Below are positions 9,013-64,000 of a DNA stretch of 64,000 nt, in pieces. Position 1 is the first letter of the stretch; every line of letters starts with the position of its first letter. The position numbers were made by a program, and so were the translations under genes. Under the pieces are notes generated by a model. The model did no database searches, was not told where the DNA came from, and saw nothing but the letters and a program-made list of their open reading frames with translations. The stretch comes from Candidatus Omnitrophota bacterium (GTDB lineage Bacteria > Omnitrophota > Gorgyraeia > 1-14-0-20-64-10): the NCBI GenBank assembly GCA_023818695.1, contig JAMWCF010000002.1, positions 66 through 64,065 on the forward strand, written 5' to 3'.

Positions 9013-11719
<2,707 letters not shown>

Positions 11720-16784: not shown

Positions 16785-16790
16785 GAGTGG

Positions 16791-16819: not shown

Positions 16820-16838
16820 GACGGCCGGCGGGCCGGGG

Positions 16839-17213: not shown

Positions 17214-17340
17214 GGATGCCGGCAACCAGCAACAAGCGACTAGCAACGGGCCGCCGTCTTAAGGTATTATGGTGACTGGAGATCAGAGAAGCCAGATGAG
17301 TCTACCGACAGCATACTGTCTCACCTGCGGAGGGTAGCGG

Positions 17341-31938: not shown

Positions 31939-32058
31939 GAGGTTTGGTTATTTCTGCCCGATATTTTCGTTGACAAGAGGGGAAGCCACAGGGGAAGATA
32001 ATAGCCGTTGTTCCGCAGCTCACCTTAATAACCTTTTCAAAACAGAAGGGGCATTCCA

Positions 32059-33264: not shown

Positions 33265-33323
33265 ACAGATCCCGCCGATCCTGCCTGAAGCGAATCAATC
33301 ACAAGAGAAAGAAAAGGGAGACC

Positions 33324-35866: not shown

Positions 35867-35923
35867 TAAATCCAGATATTCTCCTTGACTTTTTCAAAGC
35901 GCCCCACTATACTTCAAAGTAAC

Positions 35924-47881: not shown

Positions 47882-47911
47882 GGGCCGGCGGGTTTGGTCC
47901 TTCGCCGGCCC
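47882..47911 (+). terminator. GC-rich stem-loop between giant genes A and B (no U-tract)
   Basis: GGGCCGGCG (47882-47890) pairs perfectly with CGCCGGCCC (47903-47911) around a 12-nt loop, 13 nt after the stop codon. It is followed by AT-rich DNA up to the next start. Without a T-run it may be an attenuator or processing/stability element rather than a terminator. Confidence 0.3.
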
Positions 47912-47984
47912 ATCCATATGAAGCAGGACAACGCGGAGGATTTTTTGTATCCTGTAATTTAATAGTATTTAATTTTTGATTTTC

Positions 47985-50900
47985 ATGATGGAGAGAACGA
48001 GTCGGCATCATTTCATAAACCGCATAAGTGCCTGGCTCCTTATCCAGGCGCTTATTTTATCTCCGGCTTCCGTGCCGGTTTTCGGGACGGATGATCGGGC
48101 CCTTTCCGGCCAGACCCTGCGGGTCCAGCAGCCGGAAGGGGAGGCGGTCCGTTCACAGATCGGCAGCCGTTTGGCGGCTTCCGCCGGGCTTGAAGAGAAC
48201 TTAGTGGTCCAGCCGTACCGCGGTTTCACCACCAGAGTCCGCCGGGTGACCGACAAGGGCCTGCAGGTGGCCAAGCGGGAAGTGGGGGAGCTGATCGGGA
48301 CAACCTCCATCGATCTGGCAAGCGGCACCGTGGCAAACGCCCAGTTGGCCGCCGGGACAGGGGCCGCGGACCAGAACGGTTTGAATGCCGTCCGGGTGGT
48401 GGAGTGGACACAGAGCGGACTCCAGTGGCTCCTCGCCCACCAGGATTTGCCCGCGGTGACACGGCTTCTGCAGCGCCTCCAGGATAAGGACAAAACTTTT
48501 CCGGTCGAGTTGAGAGCCAATCACGCCAACACGCTTGATTTCACCGACCAGGAAGCGGCCATCCGTCTGGACACGACCATCGGCTCTGAGCTCCAAGAGC
48601 CCCAATACAGCGGCGGAAGGACCCTTCTTTACGCCGTCGGCCTTTTCCATGAGTTGGCCCAGGCCGCCGGCTTCACACCGAGGGAAGCGGCCCACCTGGT
48701 GCTGAACATTTACACCGGCATGACAACCGCCGAGAGGCAGCAGCTCCAGGCCGTTTTGAGGACGCCGGTGATCGACCACGGCGATACCTGGGCGCTGTTT
48801 CTGGAGGACGCCACCCGGCTGCCCGCCCCGGAACTGGCTGAATACGCCGGGGTGGACTCCTTGACGCTGGAGGAGCGGTTGGATGGAGAGCCGGACGCGC
48901 AGCAGCAAGGCCGGATGCTGGCGGTCCGGAACCACCGGGACCGGTGGGTTTCCTGGATGATGGGACAGACAATGGTCGACCTGCCGTACGACCGGCTGGC
49001 GTTCCGCCGCGCCATGGAGATCCAAAACGTCGAGGAGAAACGCCAGGCCTCCTATCAGGTCATCCGGAACTTCGACCGGGATGTGGAGGCGGACAATGCC
49101 AGGCGCGTGGGGGCGATCGTCCGGGAGCAGTGGCTGCCGGAAGAGTTCCCGTATCCGGTCCTTTTGGCCGGACGGGAGAGCCGGGCCTTCGGCAACCAGG
49201 CCTTTCTTTTCGCCAACAGCGGCTACGCCTTGAAAACGACCGATGTCGCCGAGGCGGCGCAGGCGCTGATGGAGATCGCCAAGGCGCACGCTCTGGAGCG
49301 GGAACTTCAGCAGGTCATCGAGACAGCCCCGCCGTGGGCTCAAGGGGAGCTCACGAAATCGGTTCGCCAGATCAAAGAGCTTTTGGCTCATCTGGGACCC
49401 GGCACCGGCCGAATCCGCCAGCTGATCTTCGGGCCGGGCACGGTAGTGGCTATGACCCAGTTCAGCGGGGCCCTGCAGCAGCTGCGTGAAAACCTGGAGA
49501 TCTTCTATAACCAGGCGAGGGTTGCCCTGCGCCAGTCCCAGCAGAGGACGGTCAAGACGTCCCAGGAGGGGATCGGCCGGCGGCTTCAGCGGGAGGATGT
49601 GTCGGCCGGTTTCGCCCGGGCCCAACAGGAGCTTTCCCGTTTTGCCGGCGAATCTGGACTGGTGGCGCTGGCGATCAACCGTTTGGAAGAGGCGATGCTG
49701 AAGGCCGAAACGTACGCCGCCGCCTACAGCGTCCTGATGCAGAGGCCTTCCAGGACCGGATCCGAGAAATTCAAGGGCAACGAATTGGAGGAGAAACCGG
49801 AGCAGGAGGAGGCCCTCCGGAAGCTGGTCCGTCTGGGGGGACAAAACACCTATATGAGCCCCAGCTACGAGTGGGTGGCCGAAGCGACCGACATCATCGA
49901 AGCGGCCCCGCTGTTCATTTATGAGCGGACCATTGAGATGGACGGCAAGCATGTGACTGTCTTCGAGGTGGATCAGGAGGGGTTGGAGCAGACGATCCGC
50001 CAGATGGCCGACTACTGGGCCCAGAACATCGAGAAGACGATTGACTCCGAACATCTGGCCTTGGCCCGCGAGGTCGTGGTTCTGTCCAATGGGGCCCTTG
50101 CCGATGCGGCGCGGCTTTTGATCCAGACCGGGCTGCCGGCGGAGGCCGCTTATCGGCAGGTCCTCGCCGAATCGGCGCCGCAGCAGCAAGGTCTGTTGGG
50201 TCAGGTTGCCCGGGTCGCCGCCTGGCTGGCCGCCGAGTATAACAAGCGGGCCGAGAAGATCGAAGCCCGTGTTGAAGAGGCGTGGAGCCGGCAGAATTTC
50301 ATTGGACGGATGGAGGCGCTGCGCCTTGAGGTGATCGGCGATCCCTCCAAAGGAAATTATCCGGACCGGGCCCGACAGGCCGTCGGCCGGGCCGATCGGG
50401 CCTCGACATCTCTCCAGAAGGAAACCGAGCGGCTTCTGCCCAATGCTTTGATGCGGCAGAGGCCTCTGCCGGCTTTCCATCTTCTGACCACGGAGGCGCC
50501 CGGCCTGGTGGAAGGGTTCATCCAGACCGTTCTGGAAGAAGAGATGGCGCTGCGCAATGTGGTTCGGGCCAACGACTTTGAAAACGAGGTCAAGGAGAGA
50601 GAGCGCCGGTATGCCCGCCTGATCCAGGAGATCGGATGGCGGGTGATCCAGGAGTTCGGGTATGAGCCGATCGTCGCCCAGTATGAGGCGCAGGGGATGA
50701 CCCGCCCCCAGGCGATCTCTCAAGTTGTCGGGGACCATCTGCCGATCCAGCAGGAGGTGGCGCGGCTGGCGGTTCTGATCGAGCTGGCCGAGACGGACGC
50801 GCAGGCGCAGGGGACCACATTCACCTTCAATGCCGCCCAGCCGAACATTCCGTGGGTTGCCAACCTCCTGAGCAACGCGGCGACGCTGACCGGTTTCCAG

Positions 50901-53900
50901 GCGCAAGCCCGCCAGCAGGTTTGGCAGCGCAACCAGCTGGATTCGGACTTCGTGAAAAGGGTCGCTCAGCTGACTCAGCAGCTCCAGTCCGAAACGCAGG
51001 CAATCGCGCAGGCGATCCAGGAATCGGAGATTTACCGGCGGGAGTTCGAAGCGACCGTCGAGTGGCTGGCCCGCCGCGAGGCGCTGGACCGGCTTGATCA
51101 GGAGAAACCGGCCCTGCAGATTCAAAACCGGTTTCGGCACTGGTACCGGGCCCACACCGCCTTGGGCAGGACCACAGCCCGCAGAGAGACCGTGGCGGCC
51201 CACAACCTCCACGCCGCCATGAGCGATCCGCGGCACGCCTATTCCAGCGGGACGACTCTGGACACCAAGGACGGGAAATTCCGGCCGACAGGCGGGCGCA
51301 AGCGGTACCACCTGATCTACGCCCCGAGCCGCGTGAACCTCGGCAAGGGGGAGCGGGCCTCCGTGGAGATCTGGCCGCAGTGGGTCGGGGTGGCCGATCC
51401 GCTGGCCGCCGCCCACGCCAAGCGCTTTTACGAATTGATGAACTTCAATCCGCAGATCCGGACCGTGAAAGAGGCGGAGAACCTGAAAGTTTCCGAGAAC
51501 CAGTGGACCGCCATGATTCGGGCCGTGCGCAACGTGCAGGCCTATTTCGTCACCCGTTTGGGATATGGGGACATCGAGGATCTCGCCTTCCAGTTCAACC
51601 AGCGGGGCGGACTGCCGGTGGCAGCCGTCAAGGAGCCGGAATCTTATTCGGCGGGGCCCACCACCGGCTACTGCATCCCGAAGGATCTGTTGTTCAAGCT
51701 TTTCGTTGCCACCCTCCAGGATTCTAGGAAGCTCGCCCAGATCGGCGTGCCGGCCCATCTGCATCCTGTGGTCCAGAGGATGATAGTTCGTATCGCCGCC
51801 AGGCAGGGGGATTTTGAGACAACCGGCGAGTGGGAGCAGTGGGCGGTCGAGGAGCTGCTGTCCGCTCAGGCCCTGCAGGCGATCTTCAAACCGGCCGAGG
51901 CGAGCCAGCTTCAGAAGATCTTTTCCTCTTACGTGGAGGTGACCGGCGGGGCGGTGATCTTCCATATCACCAAGCTGTCCCAGATCCTCCAGACCACCGG
52001 CATGCCCAGCCCCCTGCTGGCCCACGGCAGCAACTTGCACGCTGCCTTGTGGAGCAACTGGGCCGACCGAAGCTTGACTCTGCCGGCGGAGGAGGTCAAC
52101 CGCTCCGTTGTTTTCAGCATGACCCGGGATATCCCGGAGTCGGCGGCGGAAGCCCGGCGGCTTAACCCGGAGGCAGGCGTGGTTCCCGAGCAGCAGCTAC
52201 GGGTCCATTTCTTCGGCACCTACAAGGGGGACGAGGACGAAGCCCCCCCGCCGGACGTCCGCTATTCTTGGACGATGCGGGCCTTCATGATCATGAGCGG
52301 GTACGGCAGGGAGGTGGCGCTGTCCCTCAACGCCGAGGGCCAGCTGTTGGCCCGCTTGAGCTGGGAGGGATTCCGGCCCGATTCCGATGACCCGGAAGAC
52401 GTCAAGGTGACGCGGTATCTTGCCAGGGAATTCGTCGGGCAGGATCAGTTTGCTCCGGAGCACGATGAGATCATCAAGCGCCTGAAAGCCGCCTTCCCGC
52501 CGCACACCACCGTCGGCGACATCACCGTGACCGTTGTGCCGGGTGTTTCGTCCGAAGACCTGCTTGGGTTCAGCGCCGAGACCGCCACCCTCTTGGGGAA
52601 CGAGGCGACCCAAGCCCAGGAATTGCTTCAGTCGAGAGGGATCTCGGTGGAGCAGATGCGGGCCAACGCCGTCCTGCGGCGGCAGTTTCCGGAAGAATGG
52701 ATCCCGCTCAACGATCTCTCCGGACCGGAACAGGATCTGATCAAAAAAGCGATCGGCGGGCAGATCCATCCGCTGGTCCTGCGCTTGAGGGGACCGGGGG
52801 ACGATTTCAAGAGGGATCTGCAGGGGCAGGACGTTGTTGTCTTTTCCGTCACCCATCCGGAGATCATGCAGATGGACCCGGCCCATTTAAGGGACCTGAT
52901 GCTGACCGGCCGTCCGCAGAGCGCCCTCTGCACGCTGGATTTCGTCGCGCAGGGGCGGCATCGGGTCTGGTTCGACCGGGACATCATGCTCTGGTACGCG
53001 GCGGGCCGGGGCGTGGATTCAGAAGGTCGGCCGATCGCCGACTGGCGGCAGAGGGACGCGAAAGGCCGCAAATCGGTTTACCGGGCTTTCGGCTGGGGGG
53101 CGCAGGAGTTCAGGCCTTTGCTGGGCACCGATCTGCGGGATGAGGTGATCCGGCAGGAGCGCCGGGCCACGGATCTGTTCGAAGTTTTGCGCCGGGTGGC
53201 CAACGCCCGCACAGCAGATCTGCCGAAGGCGATCGAGCGGTTCAAAGCCGCCTACCGGGAGAGTTTCCCGCCCGATAAGATCGCCATCGAGGCCGATCTG
53301 GCCCGTCAGTATGAGCAGCAACTCCTTATGAACAAACGCTTCAAATCAAGGGACCGGATCATCCGCCAGGCGTTTGAAGATATCGCCACCGGCATGCCGG
53401 CCGAGCAATTCGGCGTCGTTCATTGGCTTTCCACCGGCGGGCTCTTCCTGCTCAACGGCGCTCCCCAAGCGCAGCAGGAAGAGGTGCTTGGCGTCATCCG
53501 GACCGCGCAGAAGAGGATGCAGGGTGTCAACAATTCCGCGGGCCTCGAGGAGAGCGAACTGGTGGCCCTGCTAATCAAACCGCAGCTGACCGCCGCGGCC
53601 ATCCAGCTGACCGAAAGGAAAGGGGAGATGTTCTCGGTCAAGGCCAGCGAGACGGTGGTGGAGAAAGCGGTGGCCCGCCGAAAAGGACTGGCTCTGCAGG
53701 CGGCCCGCCAGGCGGCCGTGAGATCGCGCGAACAGGGGTTCCATTCGGTGGAATCGCTGACCGCCATCGGTCAGGTCGATGGGGCTCTGCAGGCAGGCCG
53801 ACAGAACGTTCTCTCGATCATCGGGGATCTTGAATCCGGCGTTCCGGTCGATTCCTCATCGGTTCACCGGCGGGTCGGTGTGGTGATGGGGCACACCGTG

Positions 53901-56900
53901 CAGGTCCTGCGGCGCTTGGCCGAGGACCTGGTGCAGGATGAAAAGGAGCGCCAGCGGATCCGGCGTCAGATTGCCGCCTTGACGCAGGGGCGGGAGTTGA
54001 GCTCCCGGGTATGGAACTCCTTCGGTGGGACTTACGAGGATTCGGGGATCCTGGCCCGGCTCTTCGAGCTGGCCGGGGAGGCCAACCGGCCCGCGGTTCT
54101 GGCGGCTATGGAGCTTCTCTACACCTCGCTGGCCCTGGAACGGACCGCCGATTTCCTGGTCCTGCCCGCAGAGGATGTGGATGAGCGCCTCCTTTATCGA
54201 GCCGCCGCCGGCTTCTTCGCGGAAACGATCGACGACCATTTCTATGAATACAACCCCTGGGCTCTTGATCCAAAGAGGGCATCTACCTTTGTCGGCCTCT
54301 ATGACGACCTCGGTGTCCTGAAGCCGGAGCACCGGGAGGAGGTCTACGGCCTCTCCTGGAGCCATCACCGAGTCCTTTACCAGTATTTTCGGTACCTGTT
54401 CCTGAACAAGACCGGCTTCAAGGACCTTTCCACCGCCGATCAGGATCTTCTGCTGGGGCGGGTCCAGATCGGGGATTCCGCCGAGCAGGACCAGCTGACC
54501 GTCCAGGCAGTCGGCGCCAGCGCGCCCGGCCGTTATGAACGGTTGTGGCGGGCCTACGGCCAGTTCCGGGAGCTGGCCTTTGTGCGCAACGACGGTTTCG
54601 CGATCCCCGTGGCCTTCGAGAACCTGGATGCCGACGATCCGGAGATCCTCAATGCTTCCCGCAAGGTGAACCATGCCTTCTTGAGCGGTGTGGGGCGGAC
54701 CCATTATTCCAGGGCCTTAATGGAGGCGGGCCATCTTGGCGAGAACATCTTCATCACCCGCGATGGGGTGGTGGCCACCCCCGCGGGAGCCAGAGGGGCG
54801 GTTCTGCAGATCAGCGACGCCCATTTCTGGCTGACGCCGGGCCGGTACCGGCATGCCCTGATCCGTTACAAAGGAATGAGTCCAACGGAGGCCGATCAGC
54901 AGATCGCAGCGGATATGAAAGCAGGCCGGATCACCCCGAAAGGGATCCGGGTGGCTGCCCGGTTCGCCAGGCCGGTCACCGTCGGATCGGTCGTGGCTCT
55001 CCATCACCATTACCAGGAGCTGGAGCTGGCCAAGGTCGGTTATCCGGCCACCGACAAATCGCCGGTTCTCTTCGAGTACACTTATGACAAGTCTCTTTAT
55101 CCATCCGCTTACAATCCTCCGGACCAGACCGGGGTCAACCTGCCGCCGGAGGTCGACTGGCACGCACAGGACACGCAGCAACTTCCGATGGCCACGGCGA
55201 AGCAGCGGATCAGGGATCTGGTCCGGCCGTTCGCCGAGGAGCACGGCATCATCGTGGCCAAGGGGTCCGCAGAGTCCGGCGCCAGGAACTTCAAGCGGTT
55301 CGACATCCTCGTCAACGGCCAGGTGGATGAGCAGGTTCTGCAGGAAGCGGTTGATTTCATCTATGAGGTTTCCAAGGGACAGAACGTCACGATCCAGCGG
55401 GCGATCATCGTCACGCCGTTGTCCTGGATGGACCCCACCGCCATCGAGCAGTTCGTGGAGCGGCAGATCAGGGACTGGTCGGTGCCGGTCAACCTGGAGC
55501 GGCATCCGAAGAGCTGGGTCTATGGCACCCTGCGCGTGATTCTGTCCGCCGGCATGCCGAAGGATCTAGCGAAACTGGATGATCCGGCCAACTGGCAGGC
55601 CTCCCACTGGATCAGTTTGAACAGCTTGCAGGTGGCCACTAACGTCGGCCGTCAGGGGACTTTGGAGATGCTTCAGCCGGAGATGGTCCGGCCGGAGTTC
55701 CGGCAGACCTTTATCCAGGAGCTTGAAAAAGCCGGCCGGCAGGTGATGGCCGCCACCGCTAGGTACGCCAAGCATTACTGGGACACGGTCTATGTACCGG
55801 CTTACACCCAGAAATACGGCCACCCGCCTCAGGAGTTCGACGCCGTCGGGGTGCCGTACTGGTGGCCGAGATACTTGATGCTGGATTTCTTGCCGGAACC
55901 GATTTGGGCCAAAAACGGCCAGCCGGTGCAGGGGGCAAGGGTGATGGATGTCATCCCCGGCGATCCGAAGAAGGGGACGCCAAGCCGGTTCACGCTAGCC
56001 GATTCCACCGGCGAGATTTTTGAAGGGCAGATCTTGGGATTCAAATTCTGGCTGCTGGAGCCGAACGTCGGGATCGGTTTGTGGCCGAACTACTGGCGCC
56101 GGGAAGAGGTGCATGAAAGGGGCCGGGCGAAAGCGCTGGGGCAGCCGATGGATTGGTCCCGCGTGGGGGTCAGCGATCGGATCGTTTTGAACAATTACCT
56201 GGCCGCGGGCGAAGCGTTCCTGCGTGCCAAATTCGGAGATGATCATTTCGGGCCGGGCGGGCCGCAGCGGGGAGGGCCGGACCCGTTCGTGCCGCCGTCC
56301 GTCACCTCGCCGACAGCGAGCCAGCCGCTGATGGCAACCTCCACCCCCATGCAGCACGGCGTCGAAACCGTTCAGCAGGCCGGCGCGGCGACCATCGGGT
56401 CGGCCCAGATGAGCCGCATTTTCGTGGAGGCGGCCCTTCGTGCCATGGCGGCCCCTATGGAGTCGCTCCGCCTGGAAACCCCGGAGGTTTTGCTGGACCG
56501 CATCAACCAATGGCTGGCCGATCCGGCTCGCGTTCAGGAATTCCCGCAGGGGGTAGGGGTTTCCGTGACCCACGAACAAGTCGACCAAGCGTTGAGCGAC
56601 TCGGTCTACAGGGGGCGGGTTGCCGAGCTGACGCTGGACCGGATTCTCTCCGAATCTGTGGCGCCCCAGGTGGATATCCTGCCGGAACCGCTATCCGCCG
56701 CCGCGACAGCACAGCTGATGCCTCACCTGTTGACCTTCGGTGTTGTCACCGGCAAGCGGGCCGTGATGAACCATCACATTTATCCCTGGGCGGCAGGCCG
56801 CGGTAACGCCCCTGTCAATGTCGTGGGCGTCCATGAGGAATGGTTGACCCCCGATGGCAGGGTTTCCCGGGCGGTTGTCTGGAAGGAAGAGGCGGGCCGG

Positions 56901-59900
56901 TTTGTCGAGGTCTCATTCCAGGAACCGGTGGCGCTGACCCATGCTTTTGTGGTGGAGCTTCTCCCGGACGATGAGCCAGGCCGGCATCAGCAATTGAACG
57001 ACCGACTTGAAAAAGCCGGCGTCCAGCTGATCAACCCGGCGCTGCGATCCGGCCTGCGTCTGGATGACAAGGGATGGATCGCCGAGAACCTGCCGGCTGA
57101 CATGACCGAAACGCTGGTCCGGGTGATGCCGGCCGGGATGGATTCCTCCTATCGTTATTCATTCGCACGGGAGGTGTTGGCACAGAGTCCGCGGGGCGTG
57201 ATTGTCAAACCGACGCCTGGCACCGAAGGCCATGGGGTGAGGTGGTTTCAGGATGCCTCCGGTGTGCTGGATTACCTCAATTCGTTCAAGGGAAAGAGCG
57301 GCGTCCTGATCAGTCCGTTCCGCGGGAATGTGACCTATCAGGGCAGGCCGGTTGTCCTGCGGTTCAACGTGATCAACGGGCGTGTGACCACCGCGACCGC
57401 CGTGGTTGGCGAGGCGGGAGGCAAAATCGCTTCGCTCGGGCAGGGAGGGACGGTGGAGCCGCTGCAGGAGGTCCTGGCCGACCTGCGGGATGAGACCGGT
57501 CAGCCGGTCTCGATCACCGCCGGGGTTTGGGAGGCGCTGCGGTTAAGGGCCCAGGAAGCGGCCCGTCGAGCCGACATCGGCATCGTGGGAGTGGATATGG
57601 TGCTTGAATCCAGCCCACAGGCCGGAGTCCAGGGGATCATCGTGGAGATGAACGCCCGGCCCGGCATCCTGGTCTTCGGGGAGCGGGTGACCTTTCCGGA
57701 GGATGGCCCCATCGAGAGCCAGCCGGCGCCGGTGACTGACTCCCATTTCTGGTCCTCTTTAACCGTGCCGGGGCGTCCTTGGTCTCCCGCGGCCGAATCC
57801 CTGCGCCGGGTGCTGGTCATCTGCGATGACCCGGTCGTGCGCGGACACATCCTGACCGTGATGGCGCGGCGGCATCCCTGGGTCCATGTCGAGGCGGTCA
57901 GTAACCTGACCCAGGCCATCGCTTACTTAGAAGGGGTCAACAACGGCGAGCAGCCGATTCCCGATCTTATTCTGGACCAGTCCTCCGAAAGCGGCCGGCT
58001 GGTCGGCCCCAGTTCGGAACTCTGGCTTGAGTTCCTGCGTCACCAGAGCAGGATGAATATCCCTTACGCCGTAGGCGGGCCGGTCGGCGAATACGACCTG
58101 GACAGCAGCGTCTCCATGATGCGGGGAATGACGGAGACCTTCACCCTCTCCCAGTGGCAGCAGATTCTGGCCGACCCGGTCAAGAGTGGGTTTCGGTCGG
58201 CCCTCTCTCGGTTCGTCCCGGTTGAAAGATTGAACGTCGAAATCGAGCGTGTTCGGCGGTTGGTGGATGAAGCCGCCGCCCGGAACGTTTCCCTGGGGGG
58301 CAACGCCGCGGAGCCGCTGTTCAAGGCGGATGCCCGGGTGGCCCTCTCCTTTTCGCCGGGCCGGGTCCGGTTCTTCATGGGCCACTCCGATATTCGGGGG
58401 ATCGGCGGGCAGACGATCAACGCCGCCACAAACTACGGGATGTGGGCCTTGACGCAGGTGATCGAGGACCCACAGGGTCGCGTCGTGGCCGACAACCTGG
58501 ATCCGCAGTATGGTTTCTATGAATTCAACTTGAACGGCCCCGATTCCCTGCCGCCGGCCGGCATCTCTTCGGTTCGTCCGGATTGGCTGGCTTGGGCCGA
58601 GGCCCACGCGGATGCCGACAAGTGGCATGGGTTGCCCAGAGCGGTGATCGCCCTGATCCGGACCGATATGCTGGACCCGCAAGGGCAGCGGCGGATCTAC
58701 TTCCAAGGCAAAGGGATCCGGTTCTTCTTGGGTGAGAGCGACCTTCCGGTCGGCAAGGGGCTCTCCTCCTCCTCGGCCCTTCCGGCGGTCTTTTACCGGG
58801 GTATCCAGCAGTTCCTGCCCCCCTTCCTGCGCCTGCGCGGGAAGGGGCTCAATGACCTCGATTACGCCGCTTACGTCGTGGGCGACCGGGCCGGCACCGC
58901 CGACATGACCGCCATCAATATGGGGCGGGTCGGCGAGGTCTCGGTGCTGAAATCTTTCCCTGAAGAGCAGGGCGAAACGGTCAAACTGCCTTCCGATTTC
59001 CGGTTTTTTGTGGTCGATTCCGGCGTGAAGCGGATCGACGCCCCTGACCAACCGACGCAGGTGAAAAACTTCGCCGCTTTCATCAAATCGATGACCGGCA
59101 TGGGGCCTTCTTTGGCGGCTGTTTGGCTGCGGCGCCAGGCACGCGTCGACACAGCGCTGGCGGATCTTGAATCGATTTTAATGCATGAGCCGGCGGGGCA
59201 TCCGTTCGGGCTGTTGCGGGAGTTGACAGAGGCGGGCGTGATCACGAAGCCGCAGTACGCGGATATGGTCGGTGGGACCACACCGCAGGCGCGAGGGGAA
59301 TTCGTCAGGGGCCTTTTGGAGCTGATCCCGAACGATCAGACGCTGGGACAGCTCCGGCAGGCCATTGAGCAGACTCCCAATAGCAACGACCTTCTCCAGG
59401 CTTTCGACGGGCTCTTAGCTGGCTTCACCCCGCTGGGGGCCCACCAGATTCCGGTCGACGCCCCGGATAAGGATCAGCAGCTTCATGCGCTTCGTCTGAA
59501 TTCGGTCATTCCTCTGCGGCAGCTGGCCGCCTACGGGATTTTCGAGATCGGGCGCGGGTTGGATTATGTGGAATCGGCTAAGGCGGGGGACACCCGCAGA
59601 CTGATTAAGCTGATGCGCAAGGCGCATGACGGGGATAGGGCGGTTTGGACGCTGGGGCCCGGCGACACCCTGGTGCCGACCGCGTGGGGCCAGACCAACC
59701 CGCCGGAGGCCTTCTTCCGGTCCTTGCCGGAAATTGATGCGATGATCGACGAGTTTCAGACGGCGATGGACGGGCAGTTCGGCGAAAACGCCGCCGCTGG
59801 CCGGATCATGGCGGCCGGTCTGGGCGGCGCTGTAGCCGTCGGTGTTGTGGCCGAGGCGTATGAGGCGGCCAAGCAATGGTTCGCCGCGTACAACGGCGGC

Positions 59901-60467
59901 CGCGAAGTGATCGATGTGGAGCCCAGCGGCGGCGCTACCGGCATCGGCGTCCGGACCGATCTGAAAACCGCTCCCTCAGCCGGGTTGGAAGGGCAGCCGG
60001 TTGCCGTTGCCGACTGGGTTGTCGCCAAAGGTTCTTTGCCATCGGCGAAGACGGAAGTTCCCTCTATTGGAGTGATTGCCGGGACCGCCGATCCTCGTGG
60101 GTTGGCCTACGGAGTGGCCCTGACTCGGGCCGTTACTCCGGACGGCCAGCCGGTTCCGGTCGTCTTTGTCGTCGCCACCGACGGACAGAAAGCCAAACTG
60201 CAGGAGATGGGAATCACCTCCGGCTCGATCTTTCAAGCGGGGCCGGAAGGGGAATACCCGACCGTCGAGGCCGCTTCCCGGGCTGCTTCCCAGTGGCTTT
60301 CCACCGCCTACGGGGTCGGGCAGGTGGTGGAACTGGGGGTGACGCGGCGGATTGTGATGACCCTCCAACAGATTCTGGAGAACCTTTTTGGCATCAAGCT
60401 GGTATCGGAAGCGTTGGCTGTCTGGGAACAGTTCGTCGACCAGGCCACATTGGCCCTCCAGGCGTAA
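47985..60467 (+). CDS. Giant multi-enzyme protein B (~4160 aa): anchor/leader, ~1100 aa unassigned helical region, nucleotide-sugar dehydrogenase-like module, two ATP-grasp-like modules, REC-like domain, GHMP sugar-kinase module, shared C-terminal domain
   Basis: A single uninterrupted ORF (the track gives TTG 47976). The ATG at 47985 or 47988 gives MMERTSRHHFINRISAWLLIQALILSPASVPVFG. Motifs are in the domain-level features below. Confidence 0.85.
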   Translation: MMERTSRHHFINRISAWLLIQALILSPASVPVFGTDDRALSGQTLRVQQPEGEAVRSQIGSRLAASAGLEENLVVQPYRGFTTRVRRVTDKGLQVAKREVGELIGTTSIDLASGTVANAQLAAGTGAADQNGLNAVRVVEWTQSGLQWLLAHQDLPAVTRLLQRLQDKDKTFPVELRANHANTLDFTDQEAAIRLDTTIGSELQEPQYSGGRTLLYAVGLFHELAQAAGFTPREAAHLVLNIYTGMTTAERQQLQAVLRTPVIDHGDTWALFLEDATRLPAPELAEYAGVDSLTLEERLDGEPDAQQQGRMLAVRNHRDRWVSWMMGQTMVDLPYDRLAFRRAMEIQNVEEKRQASYQVIRNFDRDVEADNARRVGAIVREQWLPEEFPYPVLLAGRESRAFGNQAFLFANSGYALKTTDVAEAAQALMEIAKAHALERELQQVIETAPPWAQGELTKSVRQIKELLAHLGPGTGRIRQLIFGPGTVVAMTQFSGALQQLRENLEIFYNQARVALRQSQQRTVKTSQEGIGRRLQREDVSAGFARAQQELSRFAGESGLVALAINRLEEAMLKAETYAAAYSVLMQRPSRTGSEKFKGNELEEKPEQEEALRKLVRLGGQNTYMSPSYEWVAEATDIIEAAPLFIYERTIEMDGKHVTVFEVDQEGLEQTIRQMADYWAQNIEKTIDSEHLALAREVVVLSNGALADAARLLIQTGLPAEAAYRQVLAESAPQQQGLLGQVARVAAWLAAEYNKRAEKIEARVEEAWSRQNFIGRMEALRLEVIGDPSKGNYPDRARQAVGRADRASTSLQKETERLLPNALMRQRPLPAFHLLTTEAPGLVEGFIQTVLEEEMALRNVVRANDFENEVKERERRYARLIQEIGWRVIQEFGYEPIVAQYEAQGMTRPQAISQVVGDHLPIQQEVARLAVLIELAETDAQAQGTTFTFNAAQPNIPWVANLLSNAATLTGFQAQARQQVWQRNQLDSDFVKRVAQLTQQLQSETQAIAQAIQESEIYRREFEATVEWLARREALDRLDQEKPALQIQNRFRHWYRAHTALGRTTARRETVAAHNLHAAMSDPRHAYSSGTTLDTKDGKFRPTGGRKRYHLIYAPSRVNLGKGERASVEIWPQWVGVADPLAAAHAKRFYELMNFNPQIRTVKEAENLKVSENQWTAMIRAVRNVQAYFVTRLGYGDIEDLAFQFNQRGGLPVAAVKEPESYSAGPTTGYCIPKDLLFKLFVATLQDSRKLAQIGVPAHLHPVVQRMIVRIAARQGDFETTGEWEQWAVEELLSAQALQAIFKPAEASQLQKIFSSYVEVTGGAVIFHITKLSQILQTTGMPSPLLAHGSNLHAALWSNWADRSLTLPAEEVNRSVVFSMTRDIPESAAEARRLNPEAGVVPEQQLRVHFFGTYKGDEDEAPPPDVRYSWTMRAFMIMSGYGREVALSLNAEGQLLARLSWEGFRPDSDDPEDVKVTRYLAREFVGQDQFAPEHDEIIKRLKAAFPPHTTVGDITVTVVPGVSSEDLLGFSAETATLLGNEATQAQELLQSRGISVEQMRANAVLRRQFPEEWIPLNDLSGPEQDLIKKAIGGQIHPLVLRLRGPGDDFKRDLQGQDVVVFSVTHPEIMQMDPAHLRDLMLTGRPQSALCTLDFVAQGRHRVWFDRDIMLWYAAGRGVDSEGRPIADWRQRDAKGRKSVYRAFGWGAQEFRPLLGTDLRDEVIRQERRATDLFEVLRRVANARTADLPKAIERFKAAYRESFPPDKIAIEADLARQYEQQLLMNKRFKSRDRIIRQAFEDIATGMPAEQFGVVHWLSTGGLFLLNGAPQAQQEEVLGVIRTAQKRMQGVNNSAGLEESELVALLIKPQLTAAAIQLTERKGEMFSVKASETVVEKAVARRKGLALQAARQAAVRSREQGFHSVESLTAIGQVDGALQAGRQNVLSIIGDLESGVPVDSSSVHRRVGVVMGHTVQVLRRLAEDLVQDEKERQRIRRQIAALTQGRELSSRVWNSFGGTYEDSGILARLFELAGEANRPAVLAAMELLYTSLALERTADFLVLPAEDVDERLLYRAAAGFFAETIDDHFYEYNPWALDPKRASTFVGLYDDLGVLKPEHREEVYGLSWSHHRVLYQYFRYLFLNKTGFKDLSTADQDLLLGRVQIGDSAEQDQLTVQAVGASAPGRYERLWRAYGQFRELAFVRNDGFAIPVAFENLDADDPEILNASRKVNHAFLSGVGRTHYSRALMEAGHLGENIFITRDGVVATPAGARGAVLQISDAHFWLTPGRYRHALIRYKGMSPTEADQQIAADMKAGRITPKGIRVAARFARPVTVGSVVALHHHYQELELAKVGYPATDKSPVLFEYTYDKSLYPSAYNPPDQTGVNLPPEVDWHAQDTQQLPMATAKQRIRDLVRPFAEEHGIIVAKGSAESGARNFKRFDILVNGQVDEQVLQEAVDFIYEVSKGQNVTIQRAIIVTPLSWMDPTAIEQFVERQIRDWSVPVNLERHPKSWVYGTLRVILSAGMPKDLAKLDDPANWQASHWISLNSLQVATNVGRQGTLEMLQPEMVRPEFRQTFIQELEKAGRQVMAATARYAKHYWDTVYVPAYTQKYGHPPQEFDAVGVPYWWPRYLMLDFLPEPIWAKNGQPVQGARVMDVIPGDPKKGTPSRFTLADSTGEIFEGQILGFKFWLLEPNVGIGLWPNYWRREEVHERGRAKALGQPMDWSRVGVSDRIVLNNYLAAGEAFLRAKFGDDHFGPGGPQRGGPDPFVPPSVTSPTASQPLMATSTPMQHGVETVQQAGAATIGSAQMSRIFVEAALRAMAAPMESLRLETPEVLLDRINQWLADPARVQEFPQGVGVSVTHEQVDQALSDSVYRGRVAELTLDRILSESVAPQVDILPEPLSAAATAQLMPHLLTFGVVTGKRAVMNHHIYPWAAGRGNAPVNVVGVHEEWLTPDGRVSRAVVWKEEAGRFVEVSFQEPVALTHAFVVELLPDDEPGRHQQLNDRLEKAGVQLINPALRSGLRLDDKGWIAENLPADMTETLVRVMPAGMDSSYRYSFAREVLAQSPRGVIVKPTPGTEGHGVRWFQDASGVLDYLNSFKGKSGVLISPFRGNVTYQGRPVVLRFNVINGRVTTATAVVGEAGGKIASLGQGGTVEPLQEVLADLRDETGQPVSITAGVWEALRLRAQEAARRADIGIVGVDMVLESSPQAGVQGIIVEMNARPGILVFGERVTFPEDGPIESQPAPVTDSHFWSSLTVPGRPWSPAAESLRRVLVICDDPVVRGHILTVMARRHPWVHVEAVSNLTQAIAYLEGVNNGEQPIPDLILDQSSESGRLVGPSSELWLEFLRHQSRMNIPYAVGGPVGEYDLDSSVSMMRGMTETFTLSQWQQILADPVKSGFRSALSRFVPVERLNVEIERVRRLVDEAAARNVSLGGNAAEPLFKADARVALSFSPGRVRFFMGHSDIRGIGGQTINAATNYGMWALTQVIEDPQGRVVADNLDPQYGFYEFNLNGPDSLPPAGISSVRPDWLAWAEAHADADKWHGLPRAVIALIRTDMLDPQGQRRIYFQGKGIRFFLGESDLPVGKGLSSSSALPAVFYRGIQQFLPPFLRLRGKGLNDLDYAAYVVGDRAGTADMTAINMGRVGEVSVLKSFPEEQGETVKLPSDFRFFVVDSGVKRIDAPDQPTQVKNFAAFIKSMTGMGPSLAAVWLRRQARVDTALADLESILMHEPAGHPFGLLRELTEAGVITKPQYADMVGGTTPQARGEFVRGLLELIPNDQTLGQLRQAIEQTPNSNDLLQAFDGLLAGFTPLGAHQIPVDAPDKDQQLHALRLNSVIPLRQLAAYGIFEIGRGLDYVESAKAGDTRRLIKLMRKAHDGDRAVWTLGPGDTLVPTAWGQTNPPEAFFRSLPEIDAMIDEFQTAMDGQFGENAAAGRIMAAGLGGAVAVGVVAEAYEAAKQWFAAYNGGREVIDVEPSGGATGIGVRTDLKTAPSAGLEGQPVAVADWVVAKGSLPSAKTEVPSIGVIAGTADPRGLAYGVALTRAVTPDGQPVPVVFVVATDGQKAKLQEMGITSGSIFQAGPEGEYPTVEAASRAASQWLSTAYGVGQVVELGVTRRIVMTLQQILENLFGIKLVSEALAVWEQFVDQATLALQA
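51300..52905 (+). other. Domain in giant B: UDP-glucose/GDP-mannose dehydrogenase-family-like module with insertions
   Basis: - HLIYAPSRVNLGKGE resembles PERVxPG.
- The central helix is EAENLKVSENQWTAMIRAVRNVQAYFV.
- The catalytic-Cys motif is GPTTGYCIPKDLL (canonical GFGGSCFPKD; Cys codon 51672-51674).
- The C-terminal domain pattern is VHFFGTYKGDEDEAPPPDVRYS ... DVVVFSVTHPEI.
- No clear N-terminal GxGxxG was found. Confidence 0.55.
55180..56240 (+). other. Domain in giant B: ATP-grasp-like module 1 (candidate)
   Basis: EHGIIVAKGSAESGARNFKRF (K-x-G-S-x-x-G), RAIIVTPLSW and FWLLEPNVGIGLW (E-x-N-type loop) are present. The pattern is weaker than in module 2. Confidence 0.4.
56760..57690 (+). 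other. Domain in giant B: ATP-grasp module 2
   Basis: PRGVIVKPTPGTEGHGVRWF, GVLISPFRG...LRFNVINGRV and GIVGVDMVLE...GIIVEMNARPG follow the RimK/glutathione-synthetase-type ATP-grasp pattern. Confidence 0.6.
57801..58170 (+). other. Domain in giant B: receiver (REC)-like domain embedded between ATP-grasp and kinase modules
   Basis: LRRVLVICDDPVVRGHILTVMARRH...VEAVSNLTQAIAYLEG...PDLILDQ carries the acidic pair and the Asp at the expected spacing of a receiver fold. Downstream T/K positions are unclear. Confidence 0.45.
58320..59960 (+). other. Domain in giant B: GHMP sugar-kinase module (galactokinase-like)
   Basis: The galactokinase-type signature is SPGRVRFFMGHSDIRGIGGQTINAAT (canonical GRVNLIGEHTDY). 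The GHMP ATP-binding motif is LPVGKGLSSSSALP (canonical PxGSGLGSSAA). Confidence 0.65.
59976..60467 (+). other. Shared C-terminal domain, copy in giant B
   Basis: It begins at SAGLEG (59976-59993) and ends ...VWEQFVDQATLALQA-stop. It is a paralogue of 47291-47869. Confidence 0.8.
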
Positions 60468-60480
60468 TGGGACGGAACGC

Positions 60481-63400
60481 ATGACAGAAAAAAAATCCAT
60501 CAACCAGGCGGTGAAACTGATCGCGTGGGTGTTAATGCACGCCCTTGTTGTGACCCAGGCGTGCCCTGCATCCGTCTGGTCCGCTCCTGCCCATTCGGCT
60601 GATGGGCAGACCCTGCGGGTTCAGCAACCGGAAAGCGATGTGAGCCGCGCGCAGATCGCCGGCCGGCTCGCCGCCAGCGCCGGCCTGGAGGAGTTGACCC
60701 CCGCCAAGCTGATCGACGGCTGGAGCGGGTTCTCCCAGCCGGACCGCAAGCGTCTCGGGGACCAGCTTCGCCGCCTCGCCGACAAACCGACCCTCGCCCG
60801 CCTGGTGGAGTACGCCCAGAATTCGATCAATCCCCCGTACACCCTTTATGAGCTGTTGGCCAAGGTTCTCGGCCAGCCGATACCGGTGGTCCAGGCGATG
60901 GTCGAGGGGCTCAACCCTTCGGCCTACCGGCCGCCGCAGACGATTTCGATCGGGGAATCCCACCCTATCCTGTGGAACGCCGACGAGGTCCGGCAGCATC
61001 TGGAGAACACCGTCATTGTCATCGCTGCAGGCGGCGGCGGCGCCCGCTTTAAGCGAAGTTTGTGGACCAAGCTGCGGGAACAGCTGGAGCGCAACCACCG
61101 TTTGGAGAAGCCGACCGTCATGGTGGGACCCTCCGGGACGAGCCCGGTGGTGCATACTTTGGAGGAGATTTCGGAGCTGGCCCGGTTGGTCGGCGCCAAG
61201 AACGTCCGGGTGGTTGTCGTCGCCTCCCCCGACAGCATGGAGGCGGTCCAGGGGGATATCAAGAAGAACAGCCGCTTCGTCGATCCTAAACGGGTCAAGG
61301 TGCGGGTGACCGAACAGAAGACCCACCCCAGCTTTCACACGACTTCAGGGAAGATCCTGACCACCACGGACGAGCAGGGCAGGCCTGTCCTTTTGAGGAA
61401 CCCCAACGGCACCTACGGCGCCTTTTCAGCCGGTTATGAGCTGGCAAAGAAGGAAGGGTTCGCGGCGGGAAAATCTTGGCTCGTCCTTTACGGGGATGAT
61501 CCGGTTCTCAACTCCGGCGATTTCATCGCCCGGGTCCTGACCATCGGAAAGGATCTGGATGTCGCCCCGATCGTCACCAGGAAGATCTCCCGGACGAACC
61601 CGGTGGGCGGGACCCTGGTTGACGTGGAGCTGTCTCCGGGGCTGGTCCTTCCTTTGATCATCGAGAAGGCGGAGAGGGAGCCGAACGCCGCCGCCGGGAT
61701 TCCCGGCTTGCCGGCCTTCAACCAGGTGGAGGATGCGGCGGCCCAGACCGGCAACGACCCGTTCGGGTTCAACACCGGCGTCATGAAGCTGTCGGCTCGC
61801 GCGGCGGAGGTAGCCGGCGGCCTGATCCTGCCGATCCGCCACGCCGACCGGGAGAGGGACGACTTGCCCGGAAACATGCGCCGGAACATGGAGCTTTTCG
61901 CCACCCATATTCCCACCTATGTCATCGGCACGCATCCCGAGATGACCTACCGGCCACTGCAGGTGGAACTGGAGCAGTACGGAGCGACGAAAGATTACGG
62001 AAAGGTGGTGGAGGCGAACCTCTCCCGGGATGCCCGGAGCCGCCAGCGGTTGAACCAACTGCTGCAGGCGGCGCCCGCCGTGCAGGTGCAGATCGGGGAG
62101 AATGTTTACCTGGATATCCGCCCCAGCTTCCAGGGTTTTAAAGGAAAGGGAACTTTGGAGCTGAAGGGTCCGATGGGGGTTGTCCTCTCCCGCGACGGCC
62201 TGACCGCCGTCCGGATCATCGAGCGGCATGCCGAGGGAAACAATCATCCCCTCTATGCCGACCCGGGGCAGGGTCAGCAGATCATCGCGGCCACAAACGG
62301 GATCATCGACCTGACAGGCGATCAGGTTGTGGACGGCTCGCAGATTTTTGCCGGTCAGGAAGAGCCGGTTCAGATCTTAAAGAGCTACTTCCCGGACCAG
62401 CTCCAGGGGCCGGGCGAAAAGCCGTTCTGGATGCAGGGGTTGACCCCGGTGGACACCCTGGCGCAGATCATCCCGGCGGCGCAGCTCGACAGCAATTCTG
62501 AAATCTGGATCCTGGGCGGTGGGGACGGCCGGGTCGGGATTGCCGCCGCGGTCCTGGCCAAGGTGAAAAAGGCGGTTTTTGTGGAAGTCGACGATGGTGC
62601 GCTTGCGGCAATCCACGCGGCAGCAGACCATTTTGTCGGCTTGGGACTGGTCAACCGATCCCAGATCGGGATTATGCAGGCCAATATATTTTCTCCCGAT
62701 TTTCAGGTCGGCCCTGACGCCACCCACATCTACCACACTGTCGGGGGTGCCTATAACCCGGAGGGGCACGGGGCCGAACAGGTCATTCCCAAAAATGTTT
62801 TCCCCCAGGTGATCGAAAAGATCAAACAGGCCCCCGTTGGAACGAGAGTCATCTTTTATCTCGGCGCGGAGGGGGAGGTTCCTCATTATTATGAACAGGC
62901 GGTCATATCTTCCGGTTTGAACCCCTGGTTTGTTTCCGGGTTGGACCAGAACATCGTCCAGATCTACCGGGTCCCGTCCGCCGGGCTGGAGCAGATGCCG
63001 CCCTCTCCCATCACCGGTTGGATCGCGGCAGATCTGGGCAACGGCTGGCGCCGCCTGCTGTACCAGCTCCAGAACGGGGACGCCTGGTTCGGGGGTTTGG
63101 TCCGAAACGACGTGCCGGACTCCCAGATCGATGACACCGCTTATATTTCACCCAGCAGCACCGTGGAAGGGAAAGCATCCCGCCTGGAGGCGGGAGCCGT
63201 TGTCAAGGACGGCAGCGCGGTCGTCGATTCGGTCATCCAGCGTAACGCCCATCTGATTGCTTCAATCGCGGAGTCGGCGCGCATCCGTCCCATGGCGGCG
63301 CTGAAAGGGGCCGTTGTTCGTCCGGCCTACGAGGAGGATGATTGGTCCTACAGCGGGGCGACCTCTTCCGATCCCCGGTTGTCGGTGAAGCACCATGAGG

Positions 63401-64000
63401 TCACTTACGAGGGTTATATCTACCGGGTGGAGGTGGAGGCCGCCGCCCTCGTTGAGTCTTCGGATGTCCAGGGTTCCTTCATCGGCAAAAAATCTGTCGT
63501 GCAGGGAAGCGCGATCGTCATCAGCCAGCTCGGTGACGAGACCGATTCCCATAGAGTCAAGTGGAGTTTGGTCACCGCGCCGGCCGGGCATCTGCAGGTG
63601 CAGGGAATCCAGCGGCTGCCGGGGAGGGAGATCCCGGCCGCCACCGAGATTTCCGAAACCGCCATCCTGGGGGTGTCGGACATCGATTACCGGGGCACGC
63701 AGTTTTCCATCCGGAACACCGGCTACACCGAGATGGTGGCGCTCAACCGGATCCCGCTGGCCTCCTATTTCGGGAAAAACCTTTCCTTCGCCTGGTATCC
63801 CAAGCAGGTCCCGCCCCTGATGCTGCTGGGAGACGGGGCGATCTTTTCCATCTTTGCCGGCGCCCCCAACCCGCAGAGCATTAAGACCGACGGTACCCCG
63901 ACGCCGGGCGTCATTACCAGGATCAGCGGCGCTCCGGGTGAGCAGACCAGCCAGCATGGCCGGATCGTGGCCGATCCGATGACGGTGGTGGCCGGCTTCA
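60481..64000 (+). CDS. Giant multi-enzyme protein C, 3' end beyond the window (at least 1173 aa): anchor/leader, GlmU-like nucleotidyltransferase, spermidine-synthase-like Rossmann domain, hexapeptide/LbH region
   Basis: This ORF is not in the supplied track, presumably because it has no stop in the window.
- I translated frame 1 from the ATG at 60481 to 63999 by hand and found no stop codon.
- The N-terminus is MTEKKSINQAVKLIAWVLMHALVVTQACPASVWSAPAHSADGQTLRVQQPESDVSRAQIAGRLAASAGLEE, nearly the same leader as giant B.
- Other motifs: NTVIVIAAGGGGARF, WLVLYGDDPVL and FNTGVMKL (GlmU/NTP-transferase-like, ~61006-61800); EIWILGGGDGRVGIAAAVLAKVKKAVFVEVDDGAL (spermidine-synthase-type GGGDG, ~62490-62610); hexapeptide-like ISPSSTVEGKASRLEAGAVVKDGSAVVDSVIQRNAHLIASIAESARI (~63140-63290). 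Confidence 0.85.
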   Translation, partial: MTEKKSINQAVKLIAWVLMHALVVTQACPASVWSAPAHSADGQTLRVQQPESDVSRAQIAGRLAASAGLEELTPAKLIDGWSGFSQPDRKRLGDQLRRLADKPTLARLVEYAQNSINPPYTLYELLAKVLGQPIPVVQAMVEGLNPSAYRPPQTISIGESHPILWNADEVRQHLENTVIVIAAGGGGARFKRSLWTKLREQLERNHRLEKPTVMVGPSGTSPVVHTLEEISELARLVGAKNVRVVVVASPDSMEAVQGDIKKNSRFVDPKRVKVRVTEQKTHPSFHTTSGKILTTTDEQGRPVLLRNPNGTYGAFSAGYELAKKEGFAAGKSWLVLYGDDPVLNSGDFIARVLTIGKDLDVAPIVTRKISRTNPVGGTLVDVELSPGLVLPLIIEKAEREPNAAAGIPGLPAFNQVEDAAAQTGNDPFGFNTGVMKLSARAAEVAGGLILPIRHADRERDDLPGNMRRNMELFATHIPTYVIGTHPEMTYRPLQVELEQYGATKDYGKVVEANLSRDARSRQRLNQLLQAAPAVQVQIGENVYLDIRPSFQGFKGKGTLELKGPMGVVLSRDGLTAVRIIERHAEGNNHPLYADPGQGQQIIAATNGIIDLTGDQVVDGSQIFAGQEEPVQILKSYFPDQLQGPGEKPFWMQGLTPVDTLAQIIPAAQLDSNSEIWILGGGDGRVGIAAAVLAKVKKAVFVEVDDGALAAIHAAADHFVGLGLVNRSQIGIMQANIFSPDFQVGPDATHIYHTVGGAYNPEGHGAEQVIPKNVFPQVIEKIKQAPVGTRVIFYLGAEGEVPHYYEQAVISSGLNPWFVSGLDQNIVQIYRVPSAGLEQMPPSPITGWIAADLGNGWRRLLYQLQNGDAWFGGLVRNDVPDSQIDDTAYISPSSTVEGKASRLEAGAVVKDGSAVVDSVIQRNAHLIASIAESARIRPMAALKGAVVRPAYEEDDWSYSGATSSDPRLSVKHHEVTYEGYIYRVEVEAAALVESSDVQGSFIGKKSVVQGSAIVISQLGDETDSHRVKWSLVTAPAGHLQVQGIQRLPGREIPAATEISETAILGVSDIDYRGTQFSIRNTGYTEMVALNRIPLASYFGKNLSFAWYPKQVPPLMLLGDGAIFSIFAGAPNPQSIKTDGTPTPGVITRISGAPGEQTSQHGRIVADPMTVVAGF

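Follow-up and report, generated by a model that had tools for sequence, protein, structure and literature searches.

Giant B, the subject of this analysis, lies at positions 47985-60467 of a 64,000-nt stretch of Candidatus Omnitrophota DNA (contig JAMWCF010000002.1 of assembly GCA_023818695.1), referred to here as the window, and encodes a single polypeptide of 4160 amino acids (aa). Comparison with its relatives shows that Giant B is a one-chain fusion of a widespread, uncharacterised operon, and we modestly favour the view that this multi-enzyme protein carries out an ATP-dependent modification of a nucleotide-sugar. Its frame runs uninterrupted from 47976 to 60467 on the forward strand, with the ATG at 47985 and the stop codon at 60465-60467, and is a real open reading frame (ORF), not a chance one. 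A collinear ortholog of ~47% identity over the full length is present on a contig (L001) of an Omnitrophica metagenome-assembled genome, a 4734-aa protein (P0004) is 63% identical to Giant B, and another homolog (P0001) reaches 68% identity across the last 1025 aa. Two more giants flank Giant B, namely Giant A upstream and Giant C downstream.

Mapping on relatives showed that aa ~300-2760 of Giant B, i.e. modules M1 to M4 (Table 1), constitute a core of ~2500 residues. This core also stands alone, in proteins of 2437-2659 aa whose C-terminus coincides exactly with that of M4. When GTDB species genomes were scanned with a profile, at least 109 carriers were found, including Omnitrophota, Latescibacterota, Gemmatimonadota, Armatimonadota, Acidobacteria and many Methylococcaceae; cultured carriers among the latter include Methyloglobulus morosus KoM1 and Methylotetracoccus oryzae C50C1. 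When 3 kb were fetched behind each locus, the gene following the core was found to encode a ~500-aa homolog of M5 in 31 of the 70 loci with downstream DNA, and a GHMP kinase gene and an NTP_transferase gene were present downstream in 22 and 6 of these loci, respectively. Since the order of these genes is the order of domains in Giant B, the latter is a fusion of that operon. The Pro/Gly/Ser-rich linker between M4 and M5 coincides with a gene boundary in those genomes that encode M5 separately, and the insert between M5 and M7 occupies the intergenic boundary of genomes with unfused genes.

Collinear homologs of 3300-4000 aa are also found in Amoebozoa, namely in Polysphondylium violaceum (P0009, KAF2076817.1), Synstelium polycarpum (P0007) and Pelomyxa schiedti (P0011, KAH3744193.1). 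Their identity to the Omnitrophota type exceeds that to the core-only bacterial type, and they lack the leader, the junction motif and the C-terminal domain described below, a distribution that suggests an old gene transfer between a bacterium and a eukaryote. Low-complexity sequence was seen in two of them, as N/S/T-rich runs in P0009 and a Gly/Ser-rich C-terminus in P0007. Membership of the family in an anti-phage defence system was considered and rejected, as PADLOC gave no match. The L001 ortholog, which belongs to CG11 Omnitrophica (1324-14035 of L001; GCA_002787095.1, PCVW01000064.1), is interrupted by two runs of N (9563-9626 and 9846-9996) and therefore has no full-length protein in databases; no gene was called over its first 2817 codons, and public protein sets hold the last 1344 aa only.

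The first-pass annotation of this DNA had proposed an order of domains for Giant B and tied about half of its 4160 aa to known folds; every landmark was found where it had been placed, and we agree with the estimate. Direct family scans of Giant B alone were weak, with marginal ATP-grasp and NDP-sugar (nucleoside diphosphate-sugar) dehydrogenase matches, and PDB searches with a single sequence or with two to three sequences were uninformative. The assignments became firmer with alignments and profiles of homologs.

The AlphaFold2 (AF2) model of M4, built on a 41-sequence alignment, is of high confidence (predicted local distance difference test score, pLDDT, 94.4; predicted template modelling score, pTM, 0.92), and a Foldseek comparison with the PDB returned 110 matches at E≤0.001, and the 50 top matches listed are all ATP-grasp ligases. 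The top matches, with E from 7e-7 to 4e-5 and a probability of 1.00, are D-Ala-D-Ala ligases, VanA, DcsG, GshB and LysX. D2634 is the same in all 41 sequences, and at least 90% of them keep K2426, E2430, R2434, E2692 and N2694; roles were assigned to these residues by their position in motifs, not by superposition. The ATP-grasp-like character of this module, as called earlier, is thus borne out by both model and structure comparison.

For M5, an eight-sequence profile matched 21 PDB chains at E≤1, nearly all of them ATP-grasp proteins, with cyanophycin synthase as the best (4.7e-4) and RimK, GshAB, Ddl, CPS and ITPK1 among the others. The Pfam family ATPgrasp_ST was matched by four of the eight M5 members (best 8e-6; 17-29 bits against a cut-off of 31.4), and NF010623 gave E=1.9e-4. 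The Mg-ATP motif 'IVEMNARPG' is located at aa 3219-3227, and its N3223, R3225 and G3227 are invariant in the eight sequences. These results are in line with the second ATP-grasp domain proposed at first pass. The idea that M5 is a detectable paralog of M4 was rejected (hhalign 0.4%).

M7 carries the GHMP motif II, 'PVGKGLSSSSA', at aa 3588-3598 and exceeds the cut-off of Pfam GHMP_kinases_N (23.5 bits against 22.3), which was reached in the tile only. A PDB profile search matched AbGHMP at 5.3e-9 and galactokinases at 3e-5; no literature on 'AbGHMP' was found. TIGR00131 was matched at E=2.3e-10, with 40 bits against an equivalog cut-off of 226.65. As judged from these scores, M7 looks like a galactokinase-like kinase and not a galactokinase ortholog, which agrees with the galactokinase-like GHMP kinase of the first-pass annotation.

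The central domain of M2 contains GYCIPKD at aa 1228, with the catalytic-type Cys1230, as well as K1168 and N1172. Its family profile matched the PDB entries 4r16 (E=1.3e-13) and 3g79 (E=9.6e-13), and the alignment pairs GGfCvPKD of the family with GGHCLPKD of 4r16. C1230 of the GxCxPKD signature and an AE..K..EN motif are invariant in the M2 family. Pfam PF00984 was above its cut-off in the core-only relatives P0022 and P0018, and TIGR03026 gave E=0.003 on Giant B itself. M2 probably retains the C-terminal UDP-binding domain too, with insertions: matches to that domain are collinear though each is insignificant ('YKGxxxDxRxS', and 'DVVVFSVTHPE' opposite 'DAIVIATDHPEF'). The absence of GxGxxG, already remarked on for this dehydrogenase-like module, holds for the whole protein, a scan of all 4160 aa having found none. 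Indeed, the PDB alignments begin at chain residue ~166-174 and cover residues ~166-302 only, and the 160 residues upstream of M2 are modelled as helices only, indicating that the NAD-binding domain is really missing. M2 therefore cannot be an ordinary dehydrogenase.

The N-terminal region had been described as having no recognisable motif. A word-index search with aa 1-1100 gave no matches, which was a false negative, since an exhaustive HMMER search found 107 relatives of M1. Of these, 40 matched at E≤1e-30, and many have lengths of 2400-7900 aa. Five residues (E668, R826, T835, T836 and E851) are invariant. An AF2 model of aa 200-1100 from a 50-sequence alignment is confident (pLDDT 93.1, pTM 0.87) and helical for the most part, with small sheets. 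Foldseek against the PDB found no structural match to this model (best E=0.036, TM-score below 0.1) and the viral fold library BFVD gave nothing, so that the region has a confident model with no relative of known fold in either library. M3, which has no match in Pfam or the PDB, is kept throughout the family.

Table 1. Modules of Giant B and the adjacent giants, with positions in the window
Feature	Residues (aa)	Nucleotides	Strand	Basis or remark
Leader	1-71	47985..48197	+	Hydropathy scan; common to Giant C and P0004
M1, conserved domain without known fold	72-1099	48198..51281	+	Best conserved at aa ~300-1090
M2, UDP-sugar dehydrogenase-like module	~1100-1660	51282..52964	+	Profile against PDB; Pfam PF00984
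M3, conserved region	~1661-2110	52965..54314	+	Kept in whole family
M4, ATP-grasp module 1	2111-2760	54315..56264	+	Large N-terminal extension and insertions; ends the conserved core
Pro/Gly/Ser-rich linker	2761-2832	56265..56480	+	Composition; conservation falls
M5, ATP-grasp module 2	2833-3265	56481..57779	+	Profile against PDB; ATPgrasp_ST
REC-like insert	~3270-3390	57792..58154	+	DD at 3281-3282, D3331; ICDDP at aa 3279, LILDQ at aa 3328
M7, galactokinase-like GHMP sugar kinase	~3420-3990	58242..59954	+	Pfam, TIGR00131, PDB profile
Third junction motif AGLEG and C-terminal ~150-aa domain	AGLEG at 3999-4003	59979..60464	+	Ends 'ATLALQA'
Giant A	3363 aa in length	37778-47869	+	Partner giant
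Giant C		60478..64000, runs off the window	+	Giant B-type leader and AGLEE, then module at aa 70-835

The conserved unit would comprise the core M1-M4, the second ATP-grasp module M5, of a sugar-transfer-associated type, the GHMP kinase M7 and, often, a sugar-phosphate nucleotidyltransferase. For this set we infer an order of reactions, their substrates and a part for M2. The kinase would make a sugar-1-phosphate, which the nucleotidyltransferase would convert to an NDP-sugar; the Rossmann-less M2 would bind this NDP-sugar or its uronic acid form; and the two ATP-grasp modules would spend ATP on acyl-phosphates and join amine or amino-acid groups to a carboxylate. The product could be an amide-decorated nucleotide-sugar or a sugar polymer precursor. 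The first module of Giant C, for which Pfam gave no match, may be the nucleotidyltransferase of the set. Neighbouring giants carry GlmS-like, DUF4954/GMPPB_C, PGM/PMM, ROK and GHMP modules, and these, together with a putative chitobiose-type cluster upstream, fit an amino-sugar chemistry. The specific chemistry proposed here, i.e. amine ligation to a carboxylate by the ATP-grasp modules, is nonetheless a tentative suggestion.

Several points weigh against a nucleotide-sugar-modifying enzyme. M2 has no NAD-binding domain and no source of the uronic acid has been shown. M1 and M3, ~1500 residues together, have no assigned role, and the evidence for M5 is, match by match, under curated cut-offs. 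The nucleotidyltransferase call for Giant C comes from a reading of its sequence and from the NTP_transferase genes of related operons. Export, as predicted from the leader, fits poorly with three modules that depend on ATP. Finally, every protein of the family is named 'hypothetical' in the databases, and none has been studied.

Compared with the core-only proteins, the Omnitrophota-type giants possess three additions, a hydrophobic leader, the AG[L/M]EE junction peptide and a shared C-terminal domain, which together hint at a processed polyprotein. The leader of Giant B consists of a basic N-terminus, a hydrophobic segment (aa 14-34), a conserved 'GQTLRVQQPE' and the first AGLEE (aa 67-71), and the hydropathy scan detected such a basic-then-hydrophobic N-terminal segment in Giants A, B and C and their orthologs. 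At the other end, the last 150 aa of Giant B are 68% identical to the end of Giant A, a sharing that had been recognised at first pass, and the same domain closes P0004, P0001, P0055 and the Giant A ortholog on another contig, L005. Pattern scans for this domain in genome and metagenome contigs found none, a null limited by the method, since P0004 carries the domain and its contig was in the searched set. Two candidate identities were tried and rejected, namely that the C-terminal domain is a receiver (hhalign 3%) and that the REC-like insert is an internal copy of it (hhalign 0.2%).

In 35,028 aa of Omnitrophota-type giants there are 22 copies of the strict junction motif, versus two in 119,706 aa of other family members; within the window, the giants contain eight copies and the remainder of the six-frame translation one. 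Copies of AG[L/M]E[E/G/Q] start at 37955, 45044, 47294, 48183, 53538, 59979, 60679 and 62980 of the window, and the peptide is also present in P0004-P0008, P0012, P0055 and L011. In the Omnitrophota-type giants it is found behind each leader and at the junctions between modules. Since different codons encode it in each copy, selection acts on the peptide. A literature search for 'AGLEE' as a motif found none.

Whole modules are also shuffled between neighbouring giants at this motif. The tandem of A, B and a third giant recurs in L005. The opening module of Giant C (60478-62994, from AGLEE to AGLEQ) is found in P0004 (aa 1-631), fused before a Giant B-like protein and flanked by AGLEE and GGLEE, and the third giant of L005 (24240 onward) starts directly after its own SGMEE, at the module that is second in Giant C. 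A further arrangement was seen in L011 (JACOVG010000017.1), from an Omnitrophota metagenome-assembled genome, in which ATP-grasp 2 is followed by 'SGLEE' and then by a different module ('LDAGLGNRF...PKVLAPLGG') in place of the insert and the GHMP kinase; by reading only, this module seems nucleotidyltransferase-like.

Giant A comprises, in order, a leader, AGLEE, a papain/C39-like Cys..His segment, the internal start of an Ntn-type (N-terminal nucleophile) glutamine amidotransferase, GlmS-like SIS domains, DUF4954 and the C-terminal domain. The papain/C39-like pattern, 'GQNCLTCAAHVV' ... 'GGNHFVHVLGIERGEVIYSEP', lies at aa 61-340 (window 37958-38797), after the first AGLEE. Its Cys..His pattern is kept in the L005 ortholog, and its only Pfam match is Peptidase_C39 (E=0.031, 14.6 bits against a cut-off of 22). 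The amidotransferase start, 'IIGC-CGINSVFGQYGGIR' ('C-CGINSVFG'), is located at ~38780-38830. In Ntn-type amidotransferases the Cys must be residue 1, and this internal start would therefore need cleavage.

The tandem giants could thus be cut at AG[L/M]EE into separate enzymes, with the papain/C39-like segment of Giant A as a possible protease, by analogy with cleavage after double-glycine-type leaders. The enrichment of the motif, its place behind leaders and at junctions, the movement of modules exactly at it in the window compared with L005 and L011, its varied codons and the two features of Giant A all speak for such processing, which is compatible with the module roles proposed above. Moreover, N-terminal signals or anchors, tandem giants and a suspected post-translational cleavage have been described for Omnitrophota giant proteins, the sites of which are not known (bioRxiv 10.1101/2023.11.21.568195; 10.64898/2026.06.07.730766). 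On the other hand, cleavage has never been observed, the C39 match is under threshold, and the motif could simply act as a flexible linker or as a peptide for docking or sorting. Furthermore, the second AGLEE (aa 1852-1856, nt 53538-53552), located in a variable loop of M3, falls within the conserved core, and other phyla have this core as one chain. We regard processing of this kind as a tentative possibility. The fuller scheme, in which Giants A, B and C are polyproteins, a protease of Giant A reads AG[L/M]EE as a cleavage or junction signal, and the leader and C-terminal domain direct the enzymes to a common destination for export or assembly, is doubtful. The cut would fall at or next to AG|LEE, as in 'LAASAGLEENLV'. 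A natural split of the gene at the second AGLEE, considered for P0029, was rejected, as P0029 is merely cut by the end of its contig.

If the fuller scheme held, precursors could exchange whole enzyme modules and still function, the missing cleavage points of Omnitrophota giants would be supplied, and a ~900-residue catalytic domain of new fold, common to methanotrophs and amoebae, would be exposed. For the giant proteins of Omnitrophota, AG[L/M]EE is the first concrete candidate site of processing or docking.

The same leader could be taken as a Sec signal, so that Giant B would be an exported effector, secreted or anchored at the surface, that acts outside the cell or, with ATP at its disposal, inside a host or prey cell. 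The basic and hydrophobic N-termini of A, B, C and their orthologs fit this idea, as do the type II secretion/type IV pilus genes of the window and the close homologs in Amoebozoa. Indeed, 94% of long Omnitrophota proteins have a signal peptide or a transmembrane helix, and an extracellular effector role was proposed for some of them (10.1101/2023.11.21.568195; 10.64898/2026.06.07.730766). However, the counterparts in free-living methanotrophs, Gemmatimonadota and Latescibacterota are leaderless genes of an ordinary operon, three modules of Giant B require ATP, and its analysis revealed no domain of toxin, adhesin or cell-wall-degrading type, which makes an effector unlikely.

The loss of the NAD-binding domain of M2 and the weak matches to known families raise the question of whether the modules are degenerate relics and the giant a structural scaffold of pseudo-enzymes. 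However, M2, M4 and M5 keep residues of catalytic type unchanged, or almost unchanged, across phyla, motif II of M7 is intact, and the order of the operon is conserved over at least 109 species, so that a scaffold is very unlikely.

The segment between M5 and M7 was read at first pass as a REC-like domain, wedged between ligase and kinase and providing built-in phospho-control. In Giant B it does start like a receiver, with 'RVLVICDDP', a helix and 'PDLILD', and its first 49 columns align with five real, CheY-like receivers (hhalign P=0.002). However, hhalign assigned no more than 13.6% probability to this alignment, and none with receivers was obtained for the second half of the insert. The Pfam family Response_reg had no match in aa 3260-3450 at E≤10; the genuine receiver gene of the window (20211-20729) scores E=3e-26. 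Likewise, none of the PDB receivers matched the family profile at E≤1. When the receiver residues were checked in the four segment-bearing proteins, orthologs that are 46-68% identical, the acidic pair was found to be DD in Giant B and P0001, SD in P0004 and RD in CG11, the counterpart of D3331 is T in P0004, E in P0001 and deleted in CG11, and the alignment contains no invariant T/S or K-P. The insert is the least conserved stretch of Giant B. A linker of 25-35 residues replaces it in P0003, P0005, P0006, L010 and L012, and it is absent from all the eukaryotic and core-only family members. By sequence comparison, it behaves as a lineage-specific, variable linker insert between ligase and kinase, not as a phospho-receiver, with possibly a degenerate flavodoxin-like fold.

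Control of ligase and kinase by a phosphorylated built-in receiver, possibly via the two histidine kinases at 15519-20355, is contradicted by these data and by the presence of a receiver gene of the kinases' own (20211-20729), and we consider it most improbable. This stand-alone receiver (+) overlaps the end of a CHASE-PAS-HisKA-HATPase protein (17341-20355, +), the last 150 aa of which are a GGDEF domain (E=4e-9). A receiver-like pattern in one sequence can thus be an accident of a linker insert.

Several other features of the neighbourhood were noted. A fused solute-binding/permease ABC component, a permease with a CBM30-like insert, an amidohydrolase, a ROK protein and a GH94 phosphorylase are encoded at 26166-35747, which looks like a chitobiose/cellobiose-type uptake and phosphorolysis cluster. 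At the start of the window, 27-5471 (+) encodes an 1814-aa protein with ~17 repeats of ~90 aa ('...YSTDGGSTW...') and a coiled-coil-like C-terminal tail, which resembles a surface or adhesin-type protein. A 618-aa ORF (35885-37741, +), which immediately precedes Giant A, has no Pfam match. After the stop codon of Giant A lies a GC-rich stem-loop (47883-47910; GGCCGGCG...CGCCGGCC) with no T-run. A promoter and terminator scan of the spacer between A and B gave nothing above chance; the sequence before Giant B is AT-rich, with no consensus promoter.

Collectively, these data reveal a large protein family that escaped annotation and whose core extends across many phyla. One of its domains, of ~900 residues, was modelled with confidence, and no structural relative of it could be detected. 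The family also has a conserved association with a sugar kinase, a nucleotidyltransferase and two ATP-grasp ligases. Since the unfused operon is present in cultured methanotrophs, its function is directly testable.

Among known systems, CheY-like receivers (PF00072) are mimicked by the first ~50 residues of the insert, which reproduce strand 1 with DD, helix 1, strand 2, helix 2 and strand 3 with D; unlike them, the insert fails in profile, acidic residues and the T/S and K positions. With the Omnitrophota giants Giant B shares its lineage, an N-terminal signal or anchor and a tandem arrangement, but those proteins are 10-150 thousand aa long, compared with 4 thousand for Giant B, which is made of cytoplasmic-type enzymes with single-gene counterparts elsewhere. 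ATP-grasp domains, GHMP domains and any sequence motif go unmentioned in the main texts of both reports on such giants (10.1101/2023.11.21.568195; 10.64898/2026.06.07.730766).

As to chemistry, the C-terminal, TupA-like ATP-grasp domain of Campylobacter jejuni Cj1438 amidates the C6 carboxylate of glucuronic acid (PMC11800379); the capsule locus also has a UDP-glucose dehydrogenase. Cj1438 is multidomain and performs the ATP-grasp amidation chemistry proposed for Giant B, to which it is likened by chemistry, not by sequence. It differs in being a 776-aa protein with a GT2 domain that acts on the growing capsule chain, whereas Giant B has no recognisable glycosyltransferase.

UDP-glucose/GDP-mannose dehydrogenases, including the UDP-ManNAcA (4r16) and NDP-GalNAcA (3g79) enzymes, resemble M2 in the central domain, the Cys of GxCxPKD and the Lys/Asn motif, but M2 has the helical M1 in place of the GxGxxG Rossmann domain and is embedded in a 2500-aa protein. 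M4 is similar in fold and Mg-ATP residues to the ATP-grasp carboxylate-amine ligases (Ddl, VanA, DcsG, glutathione synthetase, LysX), although its size is about double that of Ddl, it carries an N-terminal extension and large insertions, and identity is only 8-13%. The matches of M5 to cyanophycin synthase, RimK and GshAB fall in their C-terminal ATP-binding region, and M5 also matches ATPgrasp_ST; neither M4 nor M5 reaches the cut-off of a curated ATP-grasp family. Finally, fusions of a salvage-type kinase with a pyrophosphorylase exist, such as the bifunctional L-fucokinase/GDP-fucose pyrophosphorylase. The family of Giant B would similarly couple a GHMP sugar-1-kinase to a nucleotidyltransferase by fusion or neighbourhood, but here the pair is accessory to a far larger ligase core.

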